From Candidatus Thorarchaeota archaeon (GTDB lineage: Archaea; Asgardarchaeota; Heimdallarchaeia; Hodarchaeales; Hodarchaeaceae): DNA of 32,000 nucleotides. The stretch is from the NCBI GenBank assembly GCA_048882505.1, contig JBHLRO010000003.1, positions 150,001 through 182,000 of the forward strand. The letters are read 5' to 3'. Under the pieces are notes generated by a model. The model did no database searches, was not told the DNA's origin, and saw nothing but the letters and a program-made list of their open reading frames with translations. The position numbers and the translations under genes are program-made. Below, in pieces: positions 10,840-19,986 of the stretch. The first letter of the stretch is position 1. Every line of letters begins with the position of its first letter.

Positions 10840-11347
10840 GCCCCTTAAAAAAGACAGGTCTATTTAAAAGGATGAGGAAGATGTTTTCATCAATTAGATG
10901 CAATCCTCGCTGCATTCAGAACATAGTTTATAATCTAACTGGTTGCCAAACTGAACATTTTGCAGTTCTGATGATCTGAATCGGACGAAAAGCAGCTTTA
11001 GAATTCATCAAAACAATTCAAAGGAACCAACCTGCAACGAATAACTGAACTGATACTCCTTACATCTCCAAAAACCACCTACTGACCCATCTATCTCAGG
11101 ATGGCCATAATCTCTTTTATAAAACATGAGTTTTAGCTTTAACTCGAATTACCATTAGGTAATGGACTCAAATGATCAATAGATTGGAGAGAAGGATTTA
11201 TGCTTGTGAGTAGCGAGTCCAGAAGTTCTAACACTCAATACATCTTTCGTTCAATAAGAAACAATCTAGAACCTCTCGATGGATCGTACAGCCTCGAATA
11301 AGCTGATTATACCTTCGATTATCGTAAGAGAACGTTCATGGGACGAT

Positions 11348-11363
11348 GTTCGTACGCCCGAAC
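11348..11363. promoter_or_regulatory. Candidate operator: inverted repeat GTTCG-N6-CGAAC
   Basis: GTTCGTACGCCCGAAC lies 12 bp upstream of the likely start of the DtxR-family gene. DtxR-family proteins are often autoregulatory. Confidence 0.4.
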
Positions 11364-11375
11364 TGTGACAGAATC

Positions 11376-11795
11376 ATGGTTACTTGGACTCAAGAAGACT
11401 ACCTACGAGCAATATATCGATTAACAGAGGAATCAGACCGGGAAATCAAGATCAAAGATTTGGTCAATTATTTGAATTTGGCCAAATCTACAGTGTCTGA
11501 GAGAGTGGCCGACCTTGTGAAGCGTAATCTAGTCCAAAAGTCACATTATTCACCCTTAGCCCTGACACAGAAAGGTCTAGAGATCGGCGCCAAACTGACG
11601 TTGAAACATCGAATCATTGAGGTATTTCTACATGAATTCTTGGGCCTCGACTTAGATTCGGTTCATGAAGAAGCTCATCGGCTTGAACATGCGTTCTCAG
11701 ATAAGGTTATCGAGCAATTAAGGACAAAATTGGACGATCCTCTTCATTGTCCACACGGACGCCCTTTTCCGAAAATTGAGTTGGTTACGGCTTGA
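11376..11795 (+). CDS. mntR: DtxR/MntR/TroR-family metal-dependent repressor, two-domain form (no FeoA/SH3 domain)
   Basis: TQEDYLRAIY, LAKSTVSERVADL HTH, LTQKG wing, KHRIIEVFL, EEAHRLEHA, DPLHCPHGRP. ATG 11376 (MVTWTQEDY) preferred over 11346. Confidence 0.9.
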   Translation: MVTWTQEDYLRAIYRLTEESDREIKIKDLVNYLNLAKSTVSERVADLVKRNLVQKSHYSPLALTQKGLEIGAKLTLKHRIIEVFLHEFLGLDLDSVHEEAHRLEHAFSDKVIEQLRTKLDDPLHCPHGRPFPKIELVTA

Positions 11796-11840: not shown

Positions 11841-12902
11841 GTGCAGTTAAGATCCGAAAATACAAAATCTTTAAATTTCGTAATTCTAGGAGTCCTTTTC
11901 TTCGGATTCGTAATGTTCGAACTTTTCACTCCCCAACTCTTCCTGCCAAATCAACAATCGGTCAATACTACATTTAAGGGCCATTTACACTCGCATACTG
12001 ATCCTGATGTCTTCGTAACACCATCGATTTTGCCTGAGAATCGAAAATTTTCACTTATAGTCGAAGAAATGGACTGGGAAGTGGCACCTGGCCAATTTAT
12101 ATCTGTTTGGACCTTCAATGGAACGATTCCTGGCCCTACCTTAGGAGTTTATGCTGGGGACACTGTGGAAGTGACCATAATCAATCATTTAAGGGAACCA
12201 ATAAGTTTGGACTTTCTTGATTCTCGATCTCAAACCAGATTGAATAACTCAGTTAGCCAGGCTGTTGTATCTTTAAATTCATATAAAGTGATTTCATTTG
12301 GAATCCCACTAAATAGCTCTGGAACATGGATATATCGGGATACAATCGCGTACAAAGGGTTAACTGAAGAAAAAATAGACTTGGGTATTTCAAGTACAGA
12401 AAGCGTTGAAAGAGGCTTGTATGGGGCGTTTATTGTCTATGATCGAGGTGTTTCATTTCCCGATCACGATGTTGTTATTTTCCTTGATTCTTTCAAACCC
12501 CCTGTAACCGCGAACAATGATTACTTTGCTGTTCAAAACGGAGGTAGTTATCCATTTGGCCCCCATTACGTCTTTCAGCAAGGTGAATTAATACGATACC
12601 GGGCTATTAACATCGATATCGGAACGGGAGGCGATCCTCACACAACTCACGTTCATGGCCATACATGGGGAGATGAAGAAAATCGGACGGTAGATAACGA
12701 GCTTCTTTTACCGGGAGAGTCCATTGATGTACTGATACGAGCACGAAAACCTGGAATATGGATGTACCATTGTCATATCTATGATCACATAGCGGCTGGA
12801 ATGACGGGGATGCTTTCAATTGTCCCGGAGTTTTGGACAGGGGATCCCCTTGACTATGTTGCCCTTCTGATGGAGGATACCGCTTTATGTGGACTCCCGT
12901 AG
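11841..12902 (+). CDS. Membrane-anchored two-domain cupredoxin/multicopper oxidase paralog A (domain-2 ligands intact, domain-1 His ligands lost)
   Basis: N-terminal TM; WTFNGTIPGPTL...GDTV; domain 2 has HTTHVHGH and WMYHCHIYDHIAAGM; domain 1 has SLDFLD and GTWIYRDT. Confidence 0.88.
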   Translation: MQLRSENTKSLNFVILGVLFFGFVMFELFTPQLFLPNQQSVNTTFKGHLHSHTDPDVFVTPSILPENRKFSLIVEEMDWEVAPGQFISVWTFNGTIPGPTLGVYAGDTVEVTIINHLREPISLDFLDSRSQTRLNNSVSQAVVSLNSYKVISFGIPLNSSGTWIYRDTIAYKGLTEEKIDLGISSTESVERGLYGAFIVYDRGVSFPDHDVVIFLDSFKPPVTANNDYFAVQNGGSYPFGPHYVFQQGELIRYRAINIDIGTGGDPHTTHVHGHTWGDEENRTVDNELLLPGESIDVLIRARKPGIWMYHCHIYDHIAAGMTGMLSIVPEFWTGDPLDYVALLMEDTALCGLP

Positions 12903-12938
12903 AGCTAGATCGCCTGTAATGTAAGAGAGGTACCATTA

Positions 12939-13946
12939 GTGTCAAAAAACAGGATAAAAAATCTTATTGTGGGTAATAAACCTGATTTAAGAATTCTTGG
13001 TTTCATTGTTGCTGGAATATTTCTCCTAGGCTTTATATTGCTTACTCCGCAAGTAATATTCCCTTCAACCAGGGGAATAGCGGAACAGAAAGCGGGTCAT
13101 CTAGCTTCCCATGATGAGCCACAATCTGATTGTGGGGACATATCTGACAATCCAGTCAAGGAAATGAAACTTACTGCGGAAACAGTGGTCTGGGAAGTGG
13201 CACCAGGCCGATCTTTTGTCGGATGGGCATTCAATGGCACAATCCCAGGGCCTCATATTTGTTTAAATGAGGGTGACACGTTAATATTGACACTAGAAAA
13301 CCGATTAAACACTATAATAAGTTTTCACGCTCATGGACTCCTTCATGATTTTAAAAGCGATGGAACTTTCATAAGCAACTCCTTTGCGGTTCCAGGGGGT
13401 ACCTACACCTATGTCCTTTACGCAACGAACGCAACCATAGGTACATGGGCCTATCATGATGCGGTCGCTGAATTAGATGAAGAAATTATTGTTGAAAACG
13501 TTACGATCCCAGAATCGGGTGAGGGTATTGAGAGGGGTTTGTTCGGGGCTTTGATTGTTTATCCTAAAGACGATCCAGTTCAAGCGGACCATGAAATTAT
13601 CTTGGTTGAATCGGAATTTGAAGCGGAAGTTACCCAGGGACCCACCTATATGACTTTTAATGGTAGAATATCCCCATATACTCCGCATTATTTTTTTAAG
13701 CTAGGAGAGACCATTAGATTTCGAGTTATTAATGTGGGCCCTAATGCAAATCACGATATATTTGTTCCAGGTCTTGAATGGAGAGATGCAAAGACTGGTG
13801 AACTGGTCGACAGTGTTTTATTCGGCGCTTTGGAATTTGGCGACTTTTTAATTGAAGCCAATAAAGTAACAGAAACAACGTATATCTGTGGTATCCCTGA
13901 CCACGATGTTTGGGGTATGATCGGCATGTTCACCGTCATTGAATAA
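12939..13946 (+). CDS. Membrane-anchored two-domain cupredoxin/multicopper oxidase paralog B (domain-1 His ligands largely intact, domain 2 keeps only the T1 site)
   Basis: N-terminal TM; WAFNGTIPGPHI...GDTL; domain 1 has SFHAHG and GTWAYHDA; domain 2 has NHDIFVP and YICGIPDHDVWGM. Confidence 0.85.
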   Translation: MSKNRIKNLIVGNKPDLRILGFIVAGIFLLGFILLTPQVIFPSTRGIAEQKAGHLASHDEPQSDCGDISDNPVKEMKLTAETVVWEVAPGRSFVGWAFNGTIPGPHICLNEGDTLILTLENRLNTIISFHAHGLLHDFKSDGTFISNSFAVPGGTYTYVLYATNATIGTWAYHDAVAELDEEIIVENVTIPESGEGIERGLFGALIVYPKDDPVQADHEIILVESEFEAEVTQGPTYMTFNGRISPYTPHYFFKLGETIRFRVINVGPNANHDIFVPGLEWRDAKTGELVDSVLFGALEFGDFLIEANKVTETTYICGIPDHDVWGMIGMFTVIE

Positions 13947-13980
13947 TTTAAATCTCACAGAAAATCGGAAATGTAGAATC

Positions 13981-14913
13981 ATGGCAGATATAAGTCAGCT
14001 GACAATCATAGGAATCCTGTTAGGTTTGTACGTGGGCCTGGTCCCAGTATATCTAGGTTTTTACTTTTTACCTATACTGAAACGTCTTTCACACGATTGG
14101 TTGAATGTAATTGTGAGTATTTCTCTTGGAGTTTTGGTTTTTCTATTTGTAGACGTTGTGGCTGAGTCTATAGAAATGGCAGAAAAACTTCCCGCAGGAA
14201 TGCAGATTCCTGCGGACGGACAAGCCACTGTACCACCATTAGATCGAATGTTGTTTGATTTAATTTCGAGAAATCAAGATATCGTGTTTTTTCTTGGACC
14301 AATTATACTCATTTTAGGTTTCACGGCTGGCTTGGGCATTTTAATATTCATTGAGACACTGGTTAAATCAGCGGAATCAGCAAAGAAAACGACACAAGAA
14401 GCAAAGGAAACGTCCAAATCCAAGAATCCTGGCAACAAACTATCATTAATTGGTATAGAAGAGCTATCCCCACCGTTTATATTGGCAGCCATAATTTCCT
14501 TCGGTATTGGCCTTCATAATTTGGGAGAGGGTCTAGCAGTGGGCGTAGCATATGGAACTGGCAATATTACCTTGGCTACCGTACTAATTTTTGGTTTTGC
14601 GATCCATAATGTGACTGAAGGACTTGCCATCACTGCCCCAGTATCAAAATCTACTGTTAATTATCGAACGCTATTTATTTTTGGACTGCTGGCTGGAGGA
14701 CCGACGATTGTTGGAAGTCTACTGGGTATTTTTGTCTTTTCCAATGGTGTTGCATTATTTTTCTTTGCCCTAGCTGCTGGTTCGCTTTTGAAGGTTGTTA
14801 TCGATATTACTTCTCATATTGGAAACGATTTTAAGAAAAACAAATGGAACTTCTTTGGACTGGCATTAGGGTTTTTTATCATGTATCTAACCTCACTTTT
14901 GGTTATACTTTGA
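13981..14913 (+). CDS. ZIP-family (ZupT/GufA-like) divalent metal transporter
   Basis: Multiple TM helices with IGLHNLGEGLAVG and FAIHNVTEGLAI signatures. ATG 13981 preferred over TTG 13939. Confidence 0.92.
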   Translation: MADISQLTIIGILLGLYVGLVPVYLGFYFLPILKRLSHDWLNVIVSISLGVLVFLFVDVVAESIEMAEKLPAGMQIPADGQATVPPLDRMLFDLISRNQDIVFFLGPIILILGFTAGLGILIFIETLVKSAESAKKTTQEAKETSKSKNPGNKLSLIGIEELSPPFILAAIISFGIGLHNLGEGLAVGVAYGTGNITLATVLIFGFAIHNVTEGLAITAPVSKSTVNYRTLFIFGLLAGGPTIVGSLLGIFVFSNGVALFFFALAAGSLLKVVIDITSHIGNDFKKNKWNFFGLALGFFIMYLTSLLVIL

Positions 14914-15208: not shown

Positions 15209-16126
15209 TTGAAATTAAATTTTGGGATTAAGCCCCTGGAATTTGACTTATTAAGGCTGTTAACAAACCCCGAGAAAAGGGAATCTCTCGAATCCCTAGT
15301 CACACTCTTTGAAAGGGCACTAGAGTTTGGATTTCGGCATTTTGAGATAGCATGGGACTATTATTATGCATTACCGAAATTAGTTACTGAAGCAAGAATA
15401 GCTGAACTGGTTGAATTTAAGGAAGACAATAACGTAACATTTACATTGCATGCACCGATCTGGGGGGGAATAGAGCTTGCGTCTCATGTAGAAAAGGTCA
15501 GAAGGGCATCTGTCGATATTTTGATTGACTCTCTTGAAGCTTCTAAGGAATTAAAGCCAGAAAGAATGGTGATTCATCTAAGTGGCGAGTTTGCCAACAA
15601 CCTTTCATCCCTCAATCCGTTAAAAGAAAATCCCGTGTTTGAGTTGATTATCCCTTCTATGGAGAAAAGTCTCACTGAAATCATATCCAAATCTGGAAAA
15701 AGTCCGGAATTCTTTTCTATTGAAAATATAGAATTCCCATTGGATATATTTCTTAATATCGTGAGAGATAAGAAAGCAAAACTCTGCTTAGACACTGGTC
15801 ATTTCTTAGCAGGCACAAAACAAGCAAGTGCAGAGGATTTAAATTTGATGAACTTTCTCAGGTCCTACCTTGAAGAAATAGATGTGATCCATGCTCACGA
15901 TGGAGGGATATTTTGGCACAAGTCCGGCAATTTTCTTCCCGATGATCATCGTGCACTCGGGAATGGAATTATTCCTTGGAAGGATATGGTTTCCCACTTA
16001 ATTGATCAAAAGTTCTCTAAACCAATTATATTTCAACTGACTCTGCCTGATGCCAAGCAATCACTTGAGCTCATTTCAAAGGAATTTCCTGATGCAGTTG
16101 GAGAGGAGTTCGGAAATATAACCTAA
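15209..16126 (+). CDS. Sugar-phosphate isomerase/epimerase / endonuclease IV-like TIM-barrel metalloprotein
   Basis: FTLHAP, MVIHL, SIENIEFP, LCLDTGH, IHAHD and DDHRALGNG motifs. Confidence 0.82.
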   Translation: MKLNFGIKPLEFDLLRLLTNPEKRESLESLVTLFERALEFGFRHFEIAWDYYYALPKLVTEARIAELVEFKEDNNVTFTLHAPIWGGIELASHVEKVRRASVDILIDSLEASKELKPERMVIHLSGEFANNLSSLNPLKENPVFELIIPSMEKSLTEIISKSGKSPEFFSIENIEFPLDIFLNIVRDKKAKLCLDTGHFLAGTKQASAEDLNLMNFLRSYLEEIDVIHAHDGGIFWHKSGNFLPDDHRALGNGIIPWKDMVSHLIDQKFSKPIIFQLTLPDAKQSLELISKEFPDAVGEEFGNIT

Positions 16127-16130
16127 CATC

Positions 16131-16149
16131 GTTCGATTGGTAATCGCAC
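16131..16149. promoter_or_regulatory. Candidate operator: 19-bp near-palindrome GTTCGATT-GGT-AATCGCAC
   Basis: 7 of 8 arm positions pair; lies 26 bp upstream of the troA-like ATG and shares the GTTCG half-site with the repeat upstream of the repressor. Confidence 0.35.
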
Positions 16150-16175
16150 AACAGAATCCGTTTTAGTGAGAAAGC

Positions 16176-17126
16176 ATGCTGAGTCTGAAAAGAATACCAA
16201 GCTGGCTTTTATTCATCTTCCTCTCAATTGTAATCCTTGCGGCATCTATATTCTATGTCGAAATCTACTCCAATCCTCGAGAAATATCATCCGTAGAAAC
16301 GATTGAGGTCGCTGCTACTACTGGTATGGTTGCAGACATTACTCAGATAATTGGAGGTAATATTCTAAGAGTAACCGGACTTATGGGTTCTGGAGTCGAT
16401 CCACATCTCTATAAGGCTACTGCGGGAGACTTAGATATCCTTGCAAATGCTGAGATTATTTTTTTCAGTGGTTTACACCTTGAAGCAGGCCTTGGTAAAA
16501 TCTTAGAAGTTGTTGCAAATGGCAAAGCAGTCACAGATGATATTCCACGGAACGAACTTCTTGGAGACGTTCAATTCGCAAATCAATTCGATCCTCACGT
16601 CTGGTTTGATGTAGAGTTCTGGATGAAAGCAGTCAAAACAGTTAATTTTACACTTGGCCTATATTTTCCCAGCTATAGAACGATATTCGATGCCAATACT
16701 ATTAACTATTTACAGGAGCTAGAGACTTTACACGAATACGTTATAAACCGATCACAAGAACTTCCTAAAGCCCAAAGAGTACTTGTAACGGCTCATGATG
16801 CCTTTCGATATTTTGGGAAGAAATACGGTTTTGAAGTTGTAGGGTTACAAGGAATAAGTACTGTTACCGAGGCGGGAACTGCAGATGTATCTGAGCTAGC
16901 TGATTTCATCCTGGAACGCCAGATACGGGCCGTATTCGTCGAATCCTCTGTCCCTCAAAGAACAATTGAAGCAGTAATTGAAGCATGTGCCGATCGAGGA
17001 TGGGTGGTTAACATTGGGGGTAGCTTGTTCTCCGACGCAATGGGGGATTCAGGCACCTTCGAAGGTACATATATTGGAATGGTAACCCATAATATCGACA
17101 CTATTGTTGACGCACTCTCTGATTAG
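16176..17126 (+). CDS. troA: Mn/Fe/Zn ABC transporter substrate-binding protein (TroA/MntA type)
   Basis: GVDPHLY, DPHVWFD, TAHDAFRYFG and LFSDAMG give the His3-Asp ligand set. N-terminal TM anchor without a lipobox Cys. Confidence 0.9.
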   Translation: MLSLKRIPSWLLFIFLSIVILAASIFYVEIYSNPREISSVETIEVAATTGMVADITQIIGGNILRVTGLMGSGVDPHLYKATAGDLDILANAEIIFFSGLHLEAGLGKILEVVANGKAVTDDIPRNELLGDVQFANQFDPHVWFDVEFWMKAVKTVNFTLGLYFPSYRTIFDANTINYLQELETLHEYVINRSQELPKAQRVLVTAHDAFRYFGKKYGFEVVGLQGISTVTEAGTADVSELADFILERQIRAVFVESSVPQRTIEAVIEACADRGWVVNIGGSLFSDAMGDSGTFEGTYIGMVTHNIDTIVDALSD

Positions 17127-17153
17127 TTAAATAACTTGGCAAAAAATCCATAG

Positions 17154-17918
17154 GTGAACATTGTGAACAATATCAAAAATGGAATGGCGATCGAAGTTTC
17201 AAACCTTACCGTAGCATACAGAGATACTCCTGTACTCTGGGATATTAGCTTTTCCATTCCCAAAACCGAATTTCTCGCTATCGTGGGACCTAACGGTGCA
17301 GGGAAGTCTACCCTGATTAAAGCGATTCTTGGACTAATAAAGCCCATTGCAGGCTCCATTAAGGTGTTTGGCAAGGATAGTAGACACTTACCTAAGAAAT
17401 ATCAGCTAATCGGATATGTCCCGCAACGAGGAAGCGTCGATTGGGATTTTCCTACGAATTGTCTTGATGTTGTCATGATGGGGCGTTATGGCCATTTGGG
17501 GTGGTTCAGGAGGCCTGGAAAACACGAAAAAGAAGCTGCACTGGAAGCATTAGAGAAATTTGGACTCAAAGAACTAGCCATGAGACAGATAAGCCAGTTA
17601 TCAGGCGGCCAGCAACAACGCGTCTTTTTAGCTCGTGCATATGTCCAAGATGCCGACATATACTTCCTGGATGAACCATTTGCAGGAGTCGATGCCAAAA
17701 CGGAGAAAGCCTTGGTTACACTGTTGCAAGAATTAACCAAAAAAGGCAAAACCATCATTGCTGTTCAGCACGACCTCCAAACACTAGCTGAGTACTTCTC
17801 ATCTGTTATGCTATTGAATAGAAGAAAAATTGCATTAGGGATCACAACAAAGGTATTGACTCCAGAAAACATCGAACGTACCTATGGCGGTACGATTCCT
17901 GTATTAAAAAACCGATAA
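17154..17918 (+). CDS. troB: Metal ABC transporter ATPase (TroB/MntB type)
   Basis: GPNGAGKST Walker A, YVPQRGSVDWDFP, LSGGQQQR, YFLDEPF, QHD. Confidence 0.95.
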   Translation: MNIVNNIKNGMAIEVSNLTVAYRDTPVLWDISFSIPKTEFLAIVGPNGAGKSTLIKAILGLIKPIAGSIKVFGKDSRHLPKKYQLIGYVPQRGSVDWDFPTNCLDVVMMGRYGHLGWFRRPGKHEKEAALEALEKFGLKELAMRQISQLSGGQQQRVFLARAYVQDADIYFLDEPFAGVDAKTEKALVTLLQELTKKGKTIIAVQHDLQTLAEYFSSVMLLNRRKIALGITTKVLTPENIERTYGGTIPVLKNR

Positions 17919-17948
17919 CAGCTTTGTTAGCGTTAAAGTGATGCTATA

Positions 17949-19085
17949 ATGGACATACTAATAGAAATACTTGCAAATCATACGATAAGAACTGTGGCAA
18001 TCGGCGCAGGAATCATAGGATTCGTATCAGGCAGTTTGGGAGCATTTGCGTTTTTACGTCGGCAAAGCTTGCTTGGTGATGCGATTTCCCACGCAACCTT
18101 ACCTGGTGTTGCCCTTCTCTTTTTGCTCACTCTAAGTAAAGAACCGATAACGCTATTATTCGGGGCGGCACTCGCAGGCATTTTGGGAGTTCTGTTGATT
18201 ACCCTTATTACCCGTTATTCCTCATTACATCGAACTACCGCGCTAGGTATCATCCTTTCGGTCTTTTTCGGATTTGGTATAGTTTTGTTGACCATCATAC
18301 AGGAGATTCCGACCGCGGCTCAGGCAGGGTTATCTACCTTCCTCTTTGGAAATGCAGCAACGCTTCTCCAAAGAGACATTGAGGTCATGGTCATTCTGAG
18401 CATTATTTCGTTACTGCTGCTTGCAATGTTTTGGAATCAGTTTAAATTGGTGGTTTTCGATCCAGATTTCGCGTTATCCCTCGGTTTCCCTGTTGGGAAG
18501 CTGGATATATTCCTTACCTGTCTTTTGGTAATAGCGATAATCATAGGACTCCAAACCGTTGGTGTAATTCTTATGAGTGCGATGGTAGTTGGCCCGGCTG
18601 CCGCCGCGAGACAATGGACAAACCGTTTAGACCGTATGGTGATCTTGTCAGGAGCTATCGGTGCTGGAGCTGGTGTGATAGGTTCAGTTATCAGTGGTTC
18701 AACAACAAAACTTCCAACAGGCCCCGTAATAATCGTAATAGTGACTCTACTGGTGGTCATATCATTTTTCTTTTCGCCAAACCGAGGATTACTTTGGGAA
18801 TGGGCGCGGATAAGAAGGAACCGAGGGAAATTGGAACTATTTAATGCATTAAGTGATTTTCTACATGAATCTTCACCCGAATTTATTGATAAATTTCCCT
18901 CAGAGATTGCGGTCGCGGAAATTAATTCAGATAAGGATGATCCTTTTCCTTTCCTTGAAGCTCTTGAAGGACTTGGATGGATTCATAGGATTTCAGAAGG
19001 ATATTGGGGTTTAACCTATCGTGGTCTCCGAGAAGCAAAACGTATCGAATTAGAGGAAGTCGAAAAATATGTCAGCCCAAACTGA
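17949..19085 (+). CDS. troC: Metal ABC transporter permease (TroC type) with cytoplasmic C-terminal winged-helix-like extension
   Basis: LRRQSLLGDAISHATLPG, GLQTVGVILM, PAAAARQWT, then an ~90-aa soluble tail. Confidence 0.9.
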   Translation: MDILIEILANHTIRTVAIGAGIIGFVSGSLGAFAFLRRQSLLGDAISHATLPGVALLFLLTLSKEPITLLFGAALAGILGVLLITLITRYSSLHRTTALGIILSVFFGFGIVLLTIIQEIPTAAQAGLSTFLFGNAATLLQRDIEVMVILSIISLLLLAMFWNQFKLVVFDPDFALSLGFPVGKLDIFLTCLLVIAIIIGLQTVGVILMSAMVVGPAAAARQWTNRLDRMVILSGAIGAGAGVIGSVISGSTTKLPTGPVIIVIVTLLVVISFFFSPNRGLLWEWARIRRNRGKLELFNALSDFLHESSPEFIDKFPSEIAVAEINSDKDDPFPFLEALEGLGWIHRISEGYWGLTYRGLREAKRIELEEVEKYVSPN

Positions 19086-19986
19086 AATCTTACTGATCTC
19101 AGCTGTCGTGGCTGTTGCTTGTGCTTTGCCTGGAACTTTTTTAGTATTAAGAAAGATGGCGCTAATTAGTGATGCAATAAGCCACTCCATTCTCTTGGGA
19201 ATAGTTATCGCGTTTTTCATTACTCCTGATTTGAATTCGCCTTTGTTAATTATTGGAGCGGCGTTGATGGGAGTTCTAACTGTTACATTGACGGAGATTA
19301 TCGTAAGGACAAGAAGGGTCAAAGAAGATGCAGCTATTGGCCTGGTATTCCCATTTCTATTTTCAATAGGCGTAATATTAATCACACGATTTGCAGGCAA
19401 TGTGCATCTAGACATAGATGCCGTTTTAAGTGGTGAAGTTATTCTAACGCCCTTTGATCGTCTTAAAATAAACGAAATAGACTTAGGGCCGAGGGCATTT
19501 TGGGTGATGCTTGGAATCTTGGTATTAAATCTGTTATTTATTATATCGTTTTATAAGGAACTGAAAATCGTGACTTTTGACCAACAACTTGCAGCTTCAC
19601 TTGGTATTAACGTCGGGTTTATTCATTACGGACTTATGACTATTACAAGTATAACGGCAGTTGGAGCCTTCGATTCCGTCGGCGCAATTCTTGTTGTAGC
19701 GTTGATGATAGTTCCTCCTGCAACAGCGTATCTGTTAACGGAGAAATTGAGTGATATGATCGGGATGAGCGTCTTAGTGGCAATTATATCCTCGACCGCT
19801 GGATTTTTCATTGCCCAATTGTTTAATACCTCAATATCAGGCTCTATGACCACCATATGTGGAATAATTTTCTTCATGGTGTTATTTTTTGCCCCAAGGC
19901 GTGGAATTTTCCAGAAGTATTTTCGGCATGGCCAGTTAGGGGCCAAATCCTCTGTAAGTATTGAAAACCAAAGTACTTTGAATTAA
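19069..19986 (+). CDS. troD: Metal ABC transporter permease (TroD type)
   Basis: LVLRKMALISDAISHSILLG, AFDSVGAILVVALMIVPPATAYLLT; overlaps troC by 17 bp. Confidence 0.92.
   Translation: MSAQTEILLISAVVAVACALPGTFLVLRKMALISDAISHSILLGIVIAFFITPDLNSPLLIIGAALMGVLTVTLTEIIVRTRRVKEDAAIGLVFPFLFSIGVILITRFAGNVHLDIDAVLSGEVILTPFDRLKINEIDLGPRAFWVMLGILVLNLLFIISFYKELKIVTFDQQLAASLGINVGFIHYGLMTITSITAVGAFDSVGAILVVALMIVPPATAYLLTEKLSDMIGMSVLVAIISSTAGFFIAQLFNTSISGSMTTICGIIFFMVLFFAPRRGIFQKYFRHGQLGAKSSVSIENQSTLN

Follow-up and report, generated by a model that had tools for sequence, protein, structure and literature searches.

Here we describe two tandem genes, designated A and B, that encode paralogous two-domain multicopper oxidases with complementary halves of a copper cluster. 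The pair lies in a 32,000-nucleotide stretch of DNA, hereafter the window, from a Candidatus Thorarchaeota archaeon (GenBank assembly GCA_048882505.1, contig JBHLRO010000003.1, positions 150,001 to 182,000 of the forward strand). We propose, with a probability of about 0.7, that A and B form a heteromeric two-domain oxidase with a cluster shared at their interface, and that this oxidase belongs to a module, composed of a DtxR-family repressor, A, B and a ZIP-family transporter, whose likely activity is metal oxidation. According to this proposal, the two proteins would be membrane-anchored, outward-facing subunits of a single enzyme, and its only oxygen-reducing cluster would form between domain 1 of B (His130, His132 and His173) and domain 2 of A (His270, His272, His310 and His312). 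The type-1 residue Cys311 of A, flanked by the cluster ligands His310 and His312, would provide the standard His-Cys-His electron path to the cluster. In B, the residues on either side of the corresponding Cys317 are Ile and Gly. The type-1 copper of this subunit would therefore have no cluster of its own and would probably serve as an accessory electron entry or relay. A metal ion would be oxidised at the cell surface in a ferroxidase-like manner, which would aid its uptake through the dedicated ZIP.

Two-domain multicopper oxidases are textbook homotrimers and have been proposed as the ancestors of the three- and six-domain oxidases, such as laccase and ceruloplasmin. In the two-domain laccases, as in the copper nitrite reductases, the cluster is built jointly by domain 1 of one subunit and domain 2 of its neighbour. 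Both window proteins have the layout of type B two-domain multicopper oxidases, with two cupredoxin domains and the type-1 site in domain 2, and this site (His, Cys, His, Met) is complete in each. The cluster positions were assigned by aligning A and B to canonical relatives carrying all eight cluster His. In A, the four positions of domain 1 are D, L, R and T and those of domain 2 are all His; in B, the positions of domain 1 are H, H, H and A and those of domain 2 are F, P, I and G. All eight ligands are thus found on neither chain, A having four of eight (domain 2 only) and B three of eight (domain 1 only). The pair had first been singled out in an initial annotation, made by a model from the DNA letters alone. 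Both open reading frames and every motif and position that it quoted translate as given, and our alignment agrees with its description of A as having full domain-2 ligands and a domain 1 devoid of His, and of B as having domain-1 His and a domain 2 with type-1 ligands only.

To follow these positions across the family, homologs were collected by homology searches from other genomes, metagenomes and metagenome-assembled genomes, and the ligand positions were tallied for the distinct sequences, 21 of the A type and 33 of the B type. Every A-type sequence (21/21) retains the complete type-1 site and the four cluster His of domain 2, while the two first-motif positions of domain 1 vary among D, S, T, N and R and among L, V, A, G and T, respectively. 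The B-type sequences likewise retain the three domain-1 His and all type-1 ligands (33/33), while all four domain-2 cluster positions are highly variable, with His in none of the 33. The ligand position that comes after His173, the eighth of the cluster, is Ala or Ser in all B-type sequences and His in the outgroups. These lineages are 40–60% identical to the window proteins, and an exhaustive search of representatives revealed a small family (31 representatives at E <= 1e-30). Because the same reciprocal pattern recurs in 21 A-type and 33 B-type sequences, it is not due to chance. The sequences indicate a family trait rather than decay, in which each protein appears to hold one half of the cluster under purifying selection while its other half drifts, and the only sense that we can see in retaining half a cluster for so long is that the other half must come from a partner. 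Furthermore, the invariance of the B type-1 ligands makes a role for this copper in electron entry or relay plausible.

The same data bear on the possibility that there is no shared site at all, with A and B each acting alone or as homo-oligomers, as cluster-less blue-copper carriers or metal-binding surface proteins in which the leftover His are relics or ligands of some other metal. The complete type-1 sites of both proteins would suit a cupredoxin-like carrier. Relics would be expected to drift, however, yet the four His of A and the three of B are invariant among lineages with no more than 40–45% identity, and it is the opposite halves that drift. We regard separate function as very unlikely, a judgement to which the gene linkage and a fused analogue, described below, also contribute.

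The linkage of the two genes is as constant as their ligands. One of 21 other genomes searched from the same genus has the genes, in the order DtxR-A-B-ZIP. A scan of species-representative genomes with the B alignment yielded 12 loci, which belong to a Heimdallarchaeote, marine group III (Poseidoniia) and marine group II (Poseidoniales, Thalassarchaeaceae). At all loci with enough flanking sequence, an oxidase paralog lies directly upstream of B and a ZIP gene directly downstream. The B stop codon overlaps or closely precedes the ZIP start. The same upstream oxidase-B-ZIP order was found in contigs retrieved through individual proteins, as well as in five family loci from a metagenome DNA scan with the A alignment. 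These five were the family members among 80 loci kept from that scan; the other 75 were set aside as generic oxidases sharing the word WMYHCHI. The module of the Heimdall and marine group III loci can be written as (DtxR-family repressor)-A-B-ZIP and that of marine group II as A'-B'-ZIP. Among 301 sampled Poseidoniia genomes, B was present in six, with the partner adjacent in five and a contig end with partner fragments in one.

If A and B functioned separately, lone homologs would be expected, a test that had already been proposed in the initial annotation. Solitary A-type or B-type genes were found neither in the 301 Poseidoniia genomes, where a partner would score about 1e-50 with the profile, nor among all the loci judged from Heimdall, marine group II and marine group III archaea. 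The sole family member that stands alone in its locus (P0018, discussed below) keeps both halves of the cluster. In the window's genome and in four carrier genomes, the pair accounts for all Cu-oxidase_3 matches. A third, ligand-free subunit was considered and set aside, there being no third match to this model in the same five genomes and no conserved extra gene in the module, which leaves room only for a very divergent one. In two marine group II records (L018/L024:1-539 and L051:3041-4061) the coding sequence of the upstream oxidase copy is divided between two frames, which could reflect a frameshift, a pseudogene or an assembly error, and possibly loss of the partner.

Phylogenetic analysis placed the ZIP-linked oxidases in a monophyletic clade (100/99*). 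The eighth cluster His is absent from all clade members, being replaced by Ala, Ser, Leu, Ile or Thr, and is present in every outgroup. The initial annotation had counted seven of eight His for the combined site, with Ala in B at the fourth domain-1 position; the residue is right, and the missing His is now seen to characterise the clade as a whole, one-gene form included, rather than to reflect decay of B. The closest relatives with eight His (P0168-P0174) have no ZIP link, and the one checked (P0171 type, L127:857-5795) has a copper-transporting P-type ATPase no more than about 2.5 kb away. Linkage to ZIP thus coincides with loss of the eighth His.

Several members of the clade carry intermediate ligand sets. 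In the one-gene form, P0018, the gene order is a 140-aa gene, P0018 and ZIP, and the single oxidase has three domain-1 and four domain-2 His; a second example, P0141, is 82% identical with the same ligands and lies on a 1175-bp contig too short to show its neighbours. The one-gene form groups with B (91/80), and since a placement outside all paired forms is not rejected (p-AU 0.29 in the approximately unbiased test), we do not claim it as the ancestor. The tree of the upstream copies and the tree of B mirror each other. The initial annotation had suggested asking whether A and B always co-occur adjacently with the same reciprocal losses. Adjacency holds at every locus judged and the loss is completely reciprocal in the marine group III and Heimdall pairs, but not in marine group II, where the loss is confined to the domain-2 cluster His of B and the upstream copy still carries both halves. 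One upstream copy of the marine group II type, L050, no longer has its domain-1 His. In its sister, P0196, the first His-x-His motif is still present, as is a His in the second, so the loss in L050 is separate from that in the marine group III and Heimdall lineages.

A complementary split of the same kind was also found on a single chain. Exhaustive searching identified P0194, a 722-aa protein encoded by an uninterrupted open reading frame (L130:1601-3769) on a 3.8-kb contig, and a copy in a second assembly, P0333, that is identical at 721 of 722 residues. Its N-terminal half, 44% identical to SLAC-like oxidases with eight His, is B-like, having four domain-1 His and a domain 2 that contains neither cluster His nor the type-1 Cys. 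The C-terminal half is A-like: its domain 1 reads Q, L, R and A at the cluster positions, without any His, and its domain 2 is complete. The two are separated by a beta-rich insert, a Thr-rich linker and two hydrophobic segments. P0194 derives from another, SLAC-like lineage, so the complementary split was acquired there independently, and as one chain it fixes the halves in a 1:1 ratio; it lends Rosetta-stone-type support to cooperation between the two kinds of half and is a further argument against A and B working apart. The linker looks like a C-terminal sorting signal with a fresh signal peptide behind it, and cleavage there might separate the halves. A database look-up of P0194 returned generic oxidase clusters only, with scores below 0.9, and nothing on other fusions. 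A second candidate fusion, P0195 (763 aa), was rejected because it joins a type-C oxidase to a NirK-like half and is not complementary.

The compatibility of A and B was assessed by complex prediction, in which the two ectodomains were supplied with their own family alignments in three runs. The A+B model scored 0.85 in two runs and 0.83 in the third, and the best control scored 0.00. That mark is reached by 58 of 80 solved complexes and by 2 of 110 mismatched pairs, counts that are only approximate with custom alignments. Contact agreement in the A+B runs was at least 93% and partner pLDDT (predicted local distance difference test) at least 88. A ring would allow two interfaces, and every run picked B domain 1 against A domain 2. 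The modelled contacts include residues 130 and 132 of B and 270, 272, 310 and 312 of A, with low expected error for pairs such as A272-B130. Models without an A-B interface to bring the His together had been named in the initial annotation as evidence that would count against a heteromer; the modelled interface instead gathers the seven His, a result that may reflect likeness to the solved homotrimeric two-domain laccases. The model speaks for compatibility and not for binding.

Sequence conservation at the faces of the domains is relevant to stoichiometry. The live faces, which would contribute to the shared cluster, are conserved slightly above the rest of their domains (0.90 vs 0.86 and 0.89 vs 0.88), and the dead faces are relaxed, at 0.68 vs 0.79 for A domain 1 and 0.73 vs 0.89 for B domain 2. 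In the window, the dead face of A is rich in Ser, Asn and Thr. The equivalent face of the marine group II upstream copy, which retains its domain-1 His, is not relaxed (0.80 vs 0.83). From the relaxed dead faces and the 1:1 fusion in P0194, we infer that an AB unit, or a ring of the AB2 type whose A domain 1 meets only a dead B domain 2, is at least as likely as the A2B and AB2 trimers put forward in the initial annotation. The asymmetric heteromer with one catalytic site that it envisaged is supported by the ligands, the linkage and the model; a heterotrimer is one possibility, and AB, AB2 and A2B are all to be considered.

A number of observations weigh against the proposal. First, two subunit types cannot fill a three-fold ring symmetrically or make every interface productive, and the faces of A domain 1 and B domain 2 are poorly conserved and hydrophilic, so that the classic trimer may not form. 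Second, with seven His, one type-3 copper would have only two His ligands, and the site may hold fewer coppers or support a different chemistry; no characterised oxidase with a two-His type-3 copper is known to us. Third, the marine group II upstream copy could act alone as a homo-oligomer, in which case the heteromer would not be obligate in every lineage. Fourth, the single-chain model of A was of moderate quality (pLDDT 66) and was left out of the fold search for this reason. Finally, an oxidase that makes Fe(III) would not obviously feed a ZIP, which is a divalent carrier, here with canonical HNxxEG sites.

The second of these points leads to an alternative in which the A-B site is not a classical O2-reducing trinuclear cluster, and instead holds one or two coppers, catalyses chemistry on nitrite, hydroxylamine, NO or superoxide, or binds the transported metal. 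The absence of the eighth His throughout the clade, including the one-gene form, and its presence in all outgroups would be in keeping with this, as would the occurrence of NirK and NirK-like proteins among the sequence matches and the finding that a solved archaeal two-domain oxidase turns hydroxylamine into nitroxyl (PMC11761707). The type-1 site of A and B is in domain 2, however, unlike that of NirK in domain 1, and the NirK equivalog model TIGR02376 scores 63.9 bits on A and 55.8 on B against a cut-off of 296.3, so neither protein classifies as NirK. Additionally, the His-Cys-His triad and both domain-2 His-x-His motifs are canonical oxidase features, and the gene context is one of metal uptake rather than nitrogen metabolism. 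We therefore consider a different chemistry distinctly unlikely, and retain the shared oxidase cluster as the preferred interpretation.

The genes that adjoin the pair, a DtxR-family repressor and a dedicated, divergent ZIP, favour a role in metal metabolism. ZIP transporters carry divalent ions. The oxidase-linked ZIPs keep the HNxxEG motifs of transmembrane helices (TM) 4 and 5 and so qualify as ZIP proteins. Each genome searched has higher-scoring ZIP paralogs (there are three ZIPs in the window's genome), and the oxidase-linked protein is the most divergent from the Pfam model. Comparison of 13 oxidase-linked ZIPs revealed a conserved TM2-TM3 loop of ~30 residues and, where TM2 ends on the outer side, a D-x3-E-x2-E motif. 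In the window ZIP the loop is AEKLPAGMQIPADGQATVPPLD, the region of these elements spans roughly residues 70-115, and both are missing from a housekeeping paralog in the same genome (L131). By the positive-inside rule, the acidic TM2-TM3 loop is predicted to face outward, on the side of the oxidase, and it is a candidate docking or metal hand-over element.

What the oxidase does for the transporter is a matter for conjecture, and we offer both its substrate and its coupling to ZIP as guesses. To our knowledge, ferroxidase-permease iron uptake (Fet3p-Ftr1p) is the sole well-known paradigm of an oxidase genetically coupled to a permease, and for this reason a ferroxidase-like metallo-oxidase in metal acquisition is ranked first among the roles we considered, tentatively and at somewhat less than even odds. 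The heteromer might also be real and have a protective job, or one unrelated to the ZIP cargo, such as a cuprous oxidase that excludes Cu(I) during broad importer induction, or an Mn(II) oxidase. Bacterial CueO-type oxidases are generally known to protect the envelope, the metal-site residues of the repressor read ambiguously between Fe and Mn types, and an ABC binding protein of the Mn/Zn/Fe type is encoded downstream in the window, all of which would be compatible with such a job. On the other hand, it is the closest eight-His relatives that adjoin a copper ATPase, and these have no ZIP link; no Met-rich Cu(I) segment was noted on reading A and B; and Mn(II) oxidation under Mn starvation would be counterproductive. 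Such a role strikes us as unlikely. The metal-acquisition role can be taken one step further, to a two-polypeptide, ceruloplasmin-like ferroxidase docked on a specialised ZIP for copper-dependent, high-affinity uptake of iron (or manganese), with the variant forms preserving steps toward an obligate heteromer; in this full form the idea is speculative and, on balance, doubtful.

Apart from the copper ligands, the paired forms share an N-terminal motif. G-H-x3-H is found in all paired-form subunits, both A and B (in the upstream copy L050, Arg replaces the second His), and is missing from the one-gene form and the outgroups; it is possibly a second metal site or a docking element. Most paired-form subunits also have a Cys seven residues past the second His, and this Cys co-varies perfectly across the family with a Cys in domain 1 (Cys108 in B). 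Both are jointly lost in the Heimdall-type A proteins, including that of the window (V and G), and in the one-gene form. As the two Cys are present or absent together, they suggest a disulfide linking the N-terminal segment to domain 1.

The mapped features of the module are given in Table 1. A and B are 34% identical across 330 residues (E 2e-46). Pfam searches of A gave Cu-oxidase_3 (55.1 bits) and Cu-oxidase_2 (44.4 bits), both above the curated cut-offs, and those of B gave Cu-oxidase_3 (57.3 bits) and, for the second domain, a sub-threshold Cu-oxidase match (17.5 vs 21). Neither protein reaches the curated NCBIfam equivalog cut-offs, and the NCBIfam DtxR/MntR models likewise score under theirs on the repressor. 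The solved proteins closest in sequence to A and B are the Streptomyces two-domain laccases, which are also the best fold matches (E 1e-25) of the AlphaFold2 model of B (mean pLDDT 82). The C-terminal domain of A, including the segment with the His-Cys-His triad, aligns with the last domain (6) of ceruloplasmin, down to the Asp preceding the type-1 His. Single-chain models predict an N-terminal helix in A (residues 13-34) and in B (residues 15-40), and no twin-arginine motif was seen on reading either N-terminus; on these grounds we read both as membrane-anchored, outward-facing proteins.

Table 1. Features of the oxidase module, in window coordinates.
Feature	Position	Strand	Remarks
DtxR/MntR-family metal-dependent repressor	11346..11795	+	First gene of the module; Pfam Fe_dep_repress and Fe_dep_repr_C
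Subunit A, 353 aa	11841..12902	+	N-terminal membrane anchor (predicted), then two cupredoxin domains
A GHLHSH	11979..11996	+	N-terminal G-H-x3-H motif; translation and family alignment
A SLDFLD	12204..12221	+	Degenerate first His-x-His motif, domain 1; alignment
A YRDT	12333..12344	+	Degenerate second His-x-His motif, domain 1; alignment
A HTTHVHGH	12639..12662	+	Type-1 His267, cluster His270 and His272; alignment; 21/21 A-type
A HCHIYDHIAAGM	12768..12803	+	Cluster His310 and His312 around type-1 Cys311; type-1 His316 and Met321; 21/21 A-type
Subunit B, 335 aa	12939..13946	+	N-terminal membrane anchor (predicted), then two cupredoxin domains
B GHLASHDEPQSDC	13095..13133	+	N-terminal G-H-x3-H-x6-C motif; family alignment
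B Cys108	13260-13262	+	Domain-1 Cys paired with the N-terminal-motif Cys by co-variation
B FHAHG	13323..13337	+	Cluster His130 (13326) and His132 (13332); 33/33 B-type; both at the modelled interface
B YHDA	13452..13463	+	Cluster His173 (13455), 33/33 B-type; eighth cluster position is Ala
B NHDIFVP	13749..13769	+	Type-1 His272 (13752) retained; cluster positions replaced by Phe and Pro; alignment
B ICGIPDHDVWGM	13884..13919	+	Type-1 Cys317 (13887), His322 and Met327 (13917-13919) retained; flanking cluster positions replaced by Ile and Gly
ZIP-family transporter	13939..14913	+	Pfam Zip, 61.8 bits; overlaps or abuts the end of B

The public gene call for A (P0003, 329 aa) begins 24 codons later, at Met25 (window 11841-11915), and this start truncates an N-terminal hydrophobic helix that is conserved in homologs. 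A start at the GTG at 11841, or one nearby, fits the homologs better. The GTG start of B at 12939 has a ribosome-binding-like site, GAGAGGT, 7 nt upstream. Downstream of the ZIP gene, positions 15209-19986 carry on the same strand a gene for a xylose-isomerase-like TIM-barrel protein, a gene for a ZnuA/TroA-type binding protein and three further open reading frames. This extension is absent from the marine group II and III loci with enough downstream flank, and the related Heimdall contig stops at the ZIP gene. An operator search 5' of the repressor gene returned short palindromes only and no convincing DtxR box; one of these, CCATTA-GG-TAATGG at 11148-11166, lies ~180 nt upstream of the repressor gene and is a possible operator, its match to a DtxR box being unconvincing.

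Among known systems, the closest in architecture are the small laccases of Streptomyces (SLAC 3CG8, Ssl1 4M3H and the S. griseoflavus enzyme 5LHL), which are likewise built of two cupredoxin domains, carry the type-1 copper in the second and form the cluster where two chains meet. These are one-gene homotrimers with eight cluster His and three clusters, whereas here two paralogs would make at most one seven-His cluster per A-B pair. Unlike the Streptomyces enzymes, A and B also have predicted membrane anchors, the N-terminal G-H-x3-H motif (with the accompanying Cys pair lost in the window's A) and the linkage to ZIP.

In ceruloplasmin and hephaestin, one cluster forms between the first and last domains and extra type-1 coppers occupy the even domains. 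The ligand pattern of B resembles that of domains 1-2 of ceruloplasmin and the pattern of A that of domains 5-6. These proteins also act alongside a metal transporter, as proposed here for A and B. Ceruloplasmin, however, is a single eukaryotic chain with six domains, eight His and a third domain pair (3-4). A and B are separate two-domain open reading frames on two archaeal polypeptides, with no third type, and no third oxidase gene was found in the genome.

Fet3p-Ftr1p and FOX1-FTR1 offer another parallel, since there too a multicopper oxidase of the cell surface is linked genetically to a metal permease, with control of the metal-starvation type. The partner of Fet3p belongs to the FTR1/OFeT family and takes Fe(III), whereas the partner here is a ZIP with divalent-metal motifs, and Fet3p is a three-domain single chain. 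FTR1/OFeT proteins are marked by RExxE motifs, to which the D-x3-E-x2-E of the ZIP bears only a loose resemblance.

Two reports of asymmetric oxidases differ in kind. Nmar_1354 of Nitrosopumilus maritimus (PDB 9CCK), a two-domain oxidase from an archaeon, has been described as an alpha-alpha-alpha' 'heterotrimer' (PMC11761707); there the asymmetry arises because one copy of a single gene product loses an extra cupredoxin by proteolysis, and every interface has a full cluster. Fungal laccase heterodimers are described as an enzyme with a small subunit of unknown function (PMC10443355). A full-text literature search found no account of a heteromeric or split two-domain oxidase, nor of this module in marine archaea, and so returned no described example, in line with the initial annotation, whose author knew of none.

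If true, the interpretation presented here would add a new quaternary form to a heavily studied class of enzymes, one in which the cluster exists only between two gene products. The one-gene, half-degenerate and fused relatives would then form a living series in the loss of redundant sites toward a ceruloplasmin-like layout. The constant link of the pair to ZIP and to a repressor of the DtxR family points to a previously undescribed kind of partnership between oxidase and transporter. The archaea of marine groups II and III are abundant and are major heterotrophs of the ocean. Should a role in iron or manganese uptake prove true, the metal nutrition of these archaea would be tied to copper supply.

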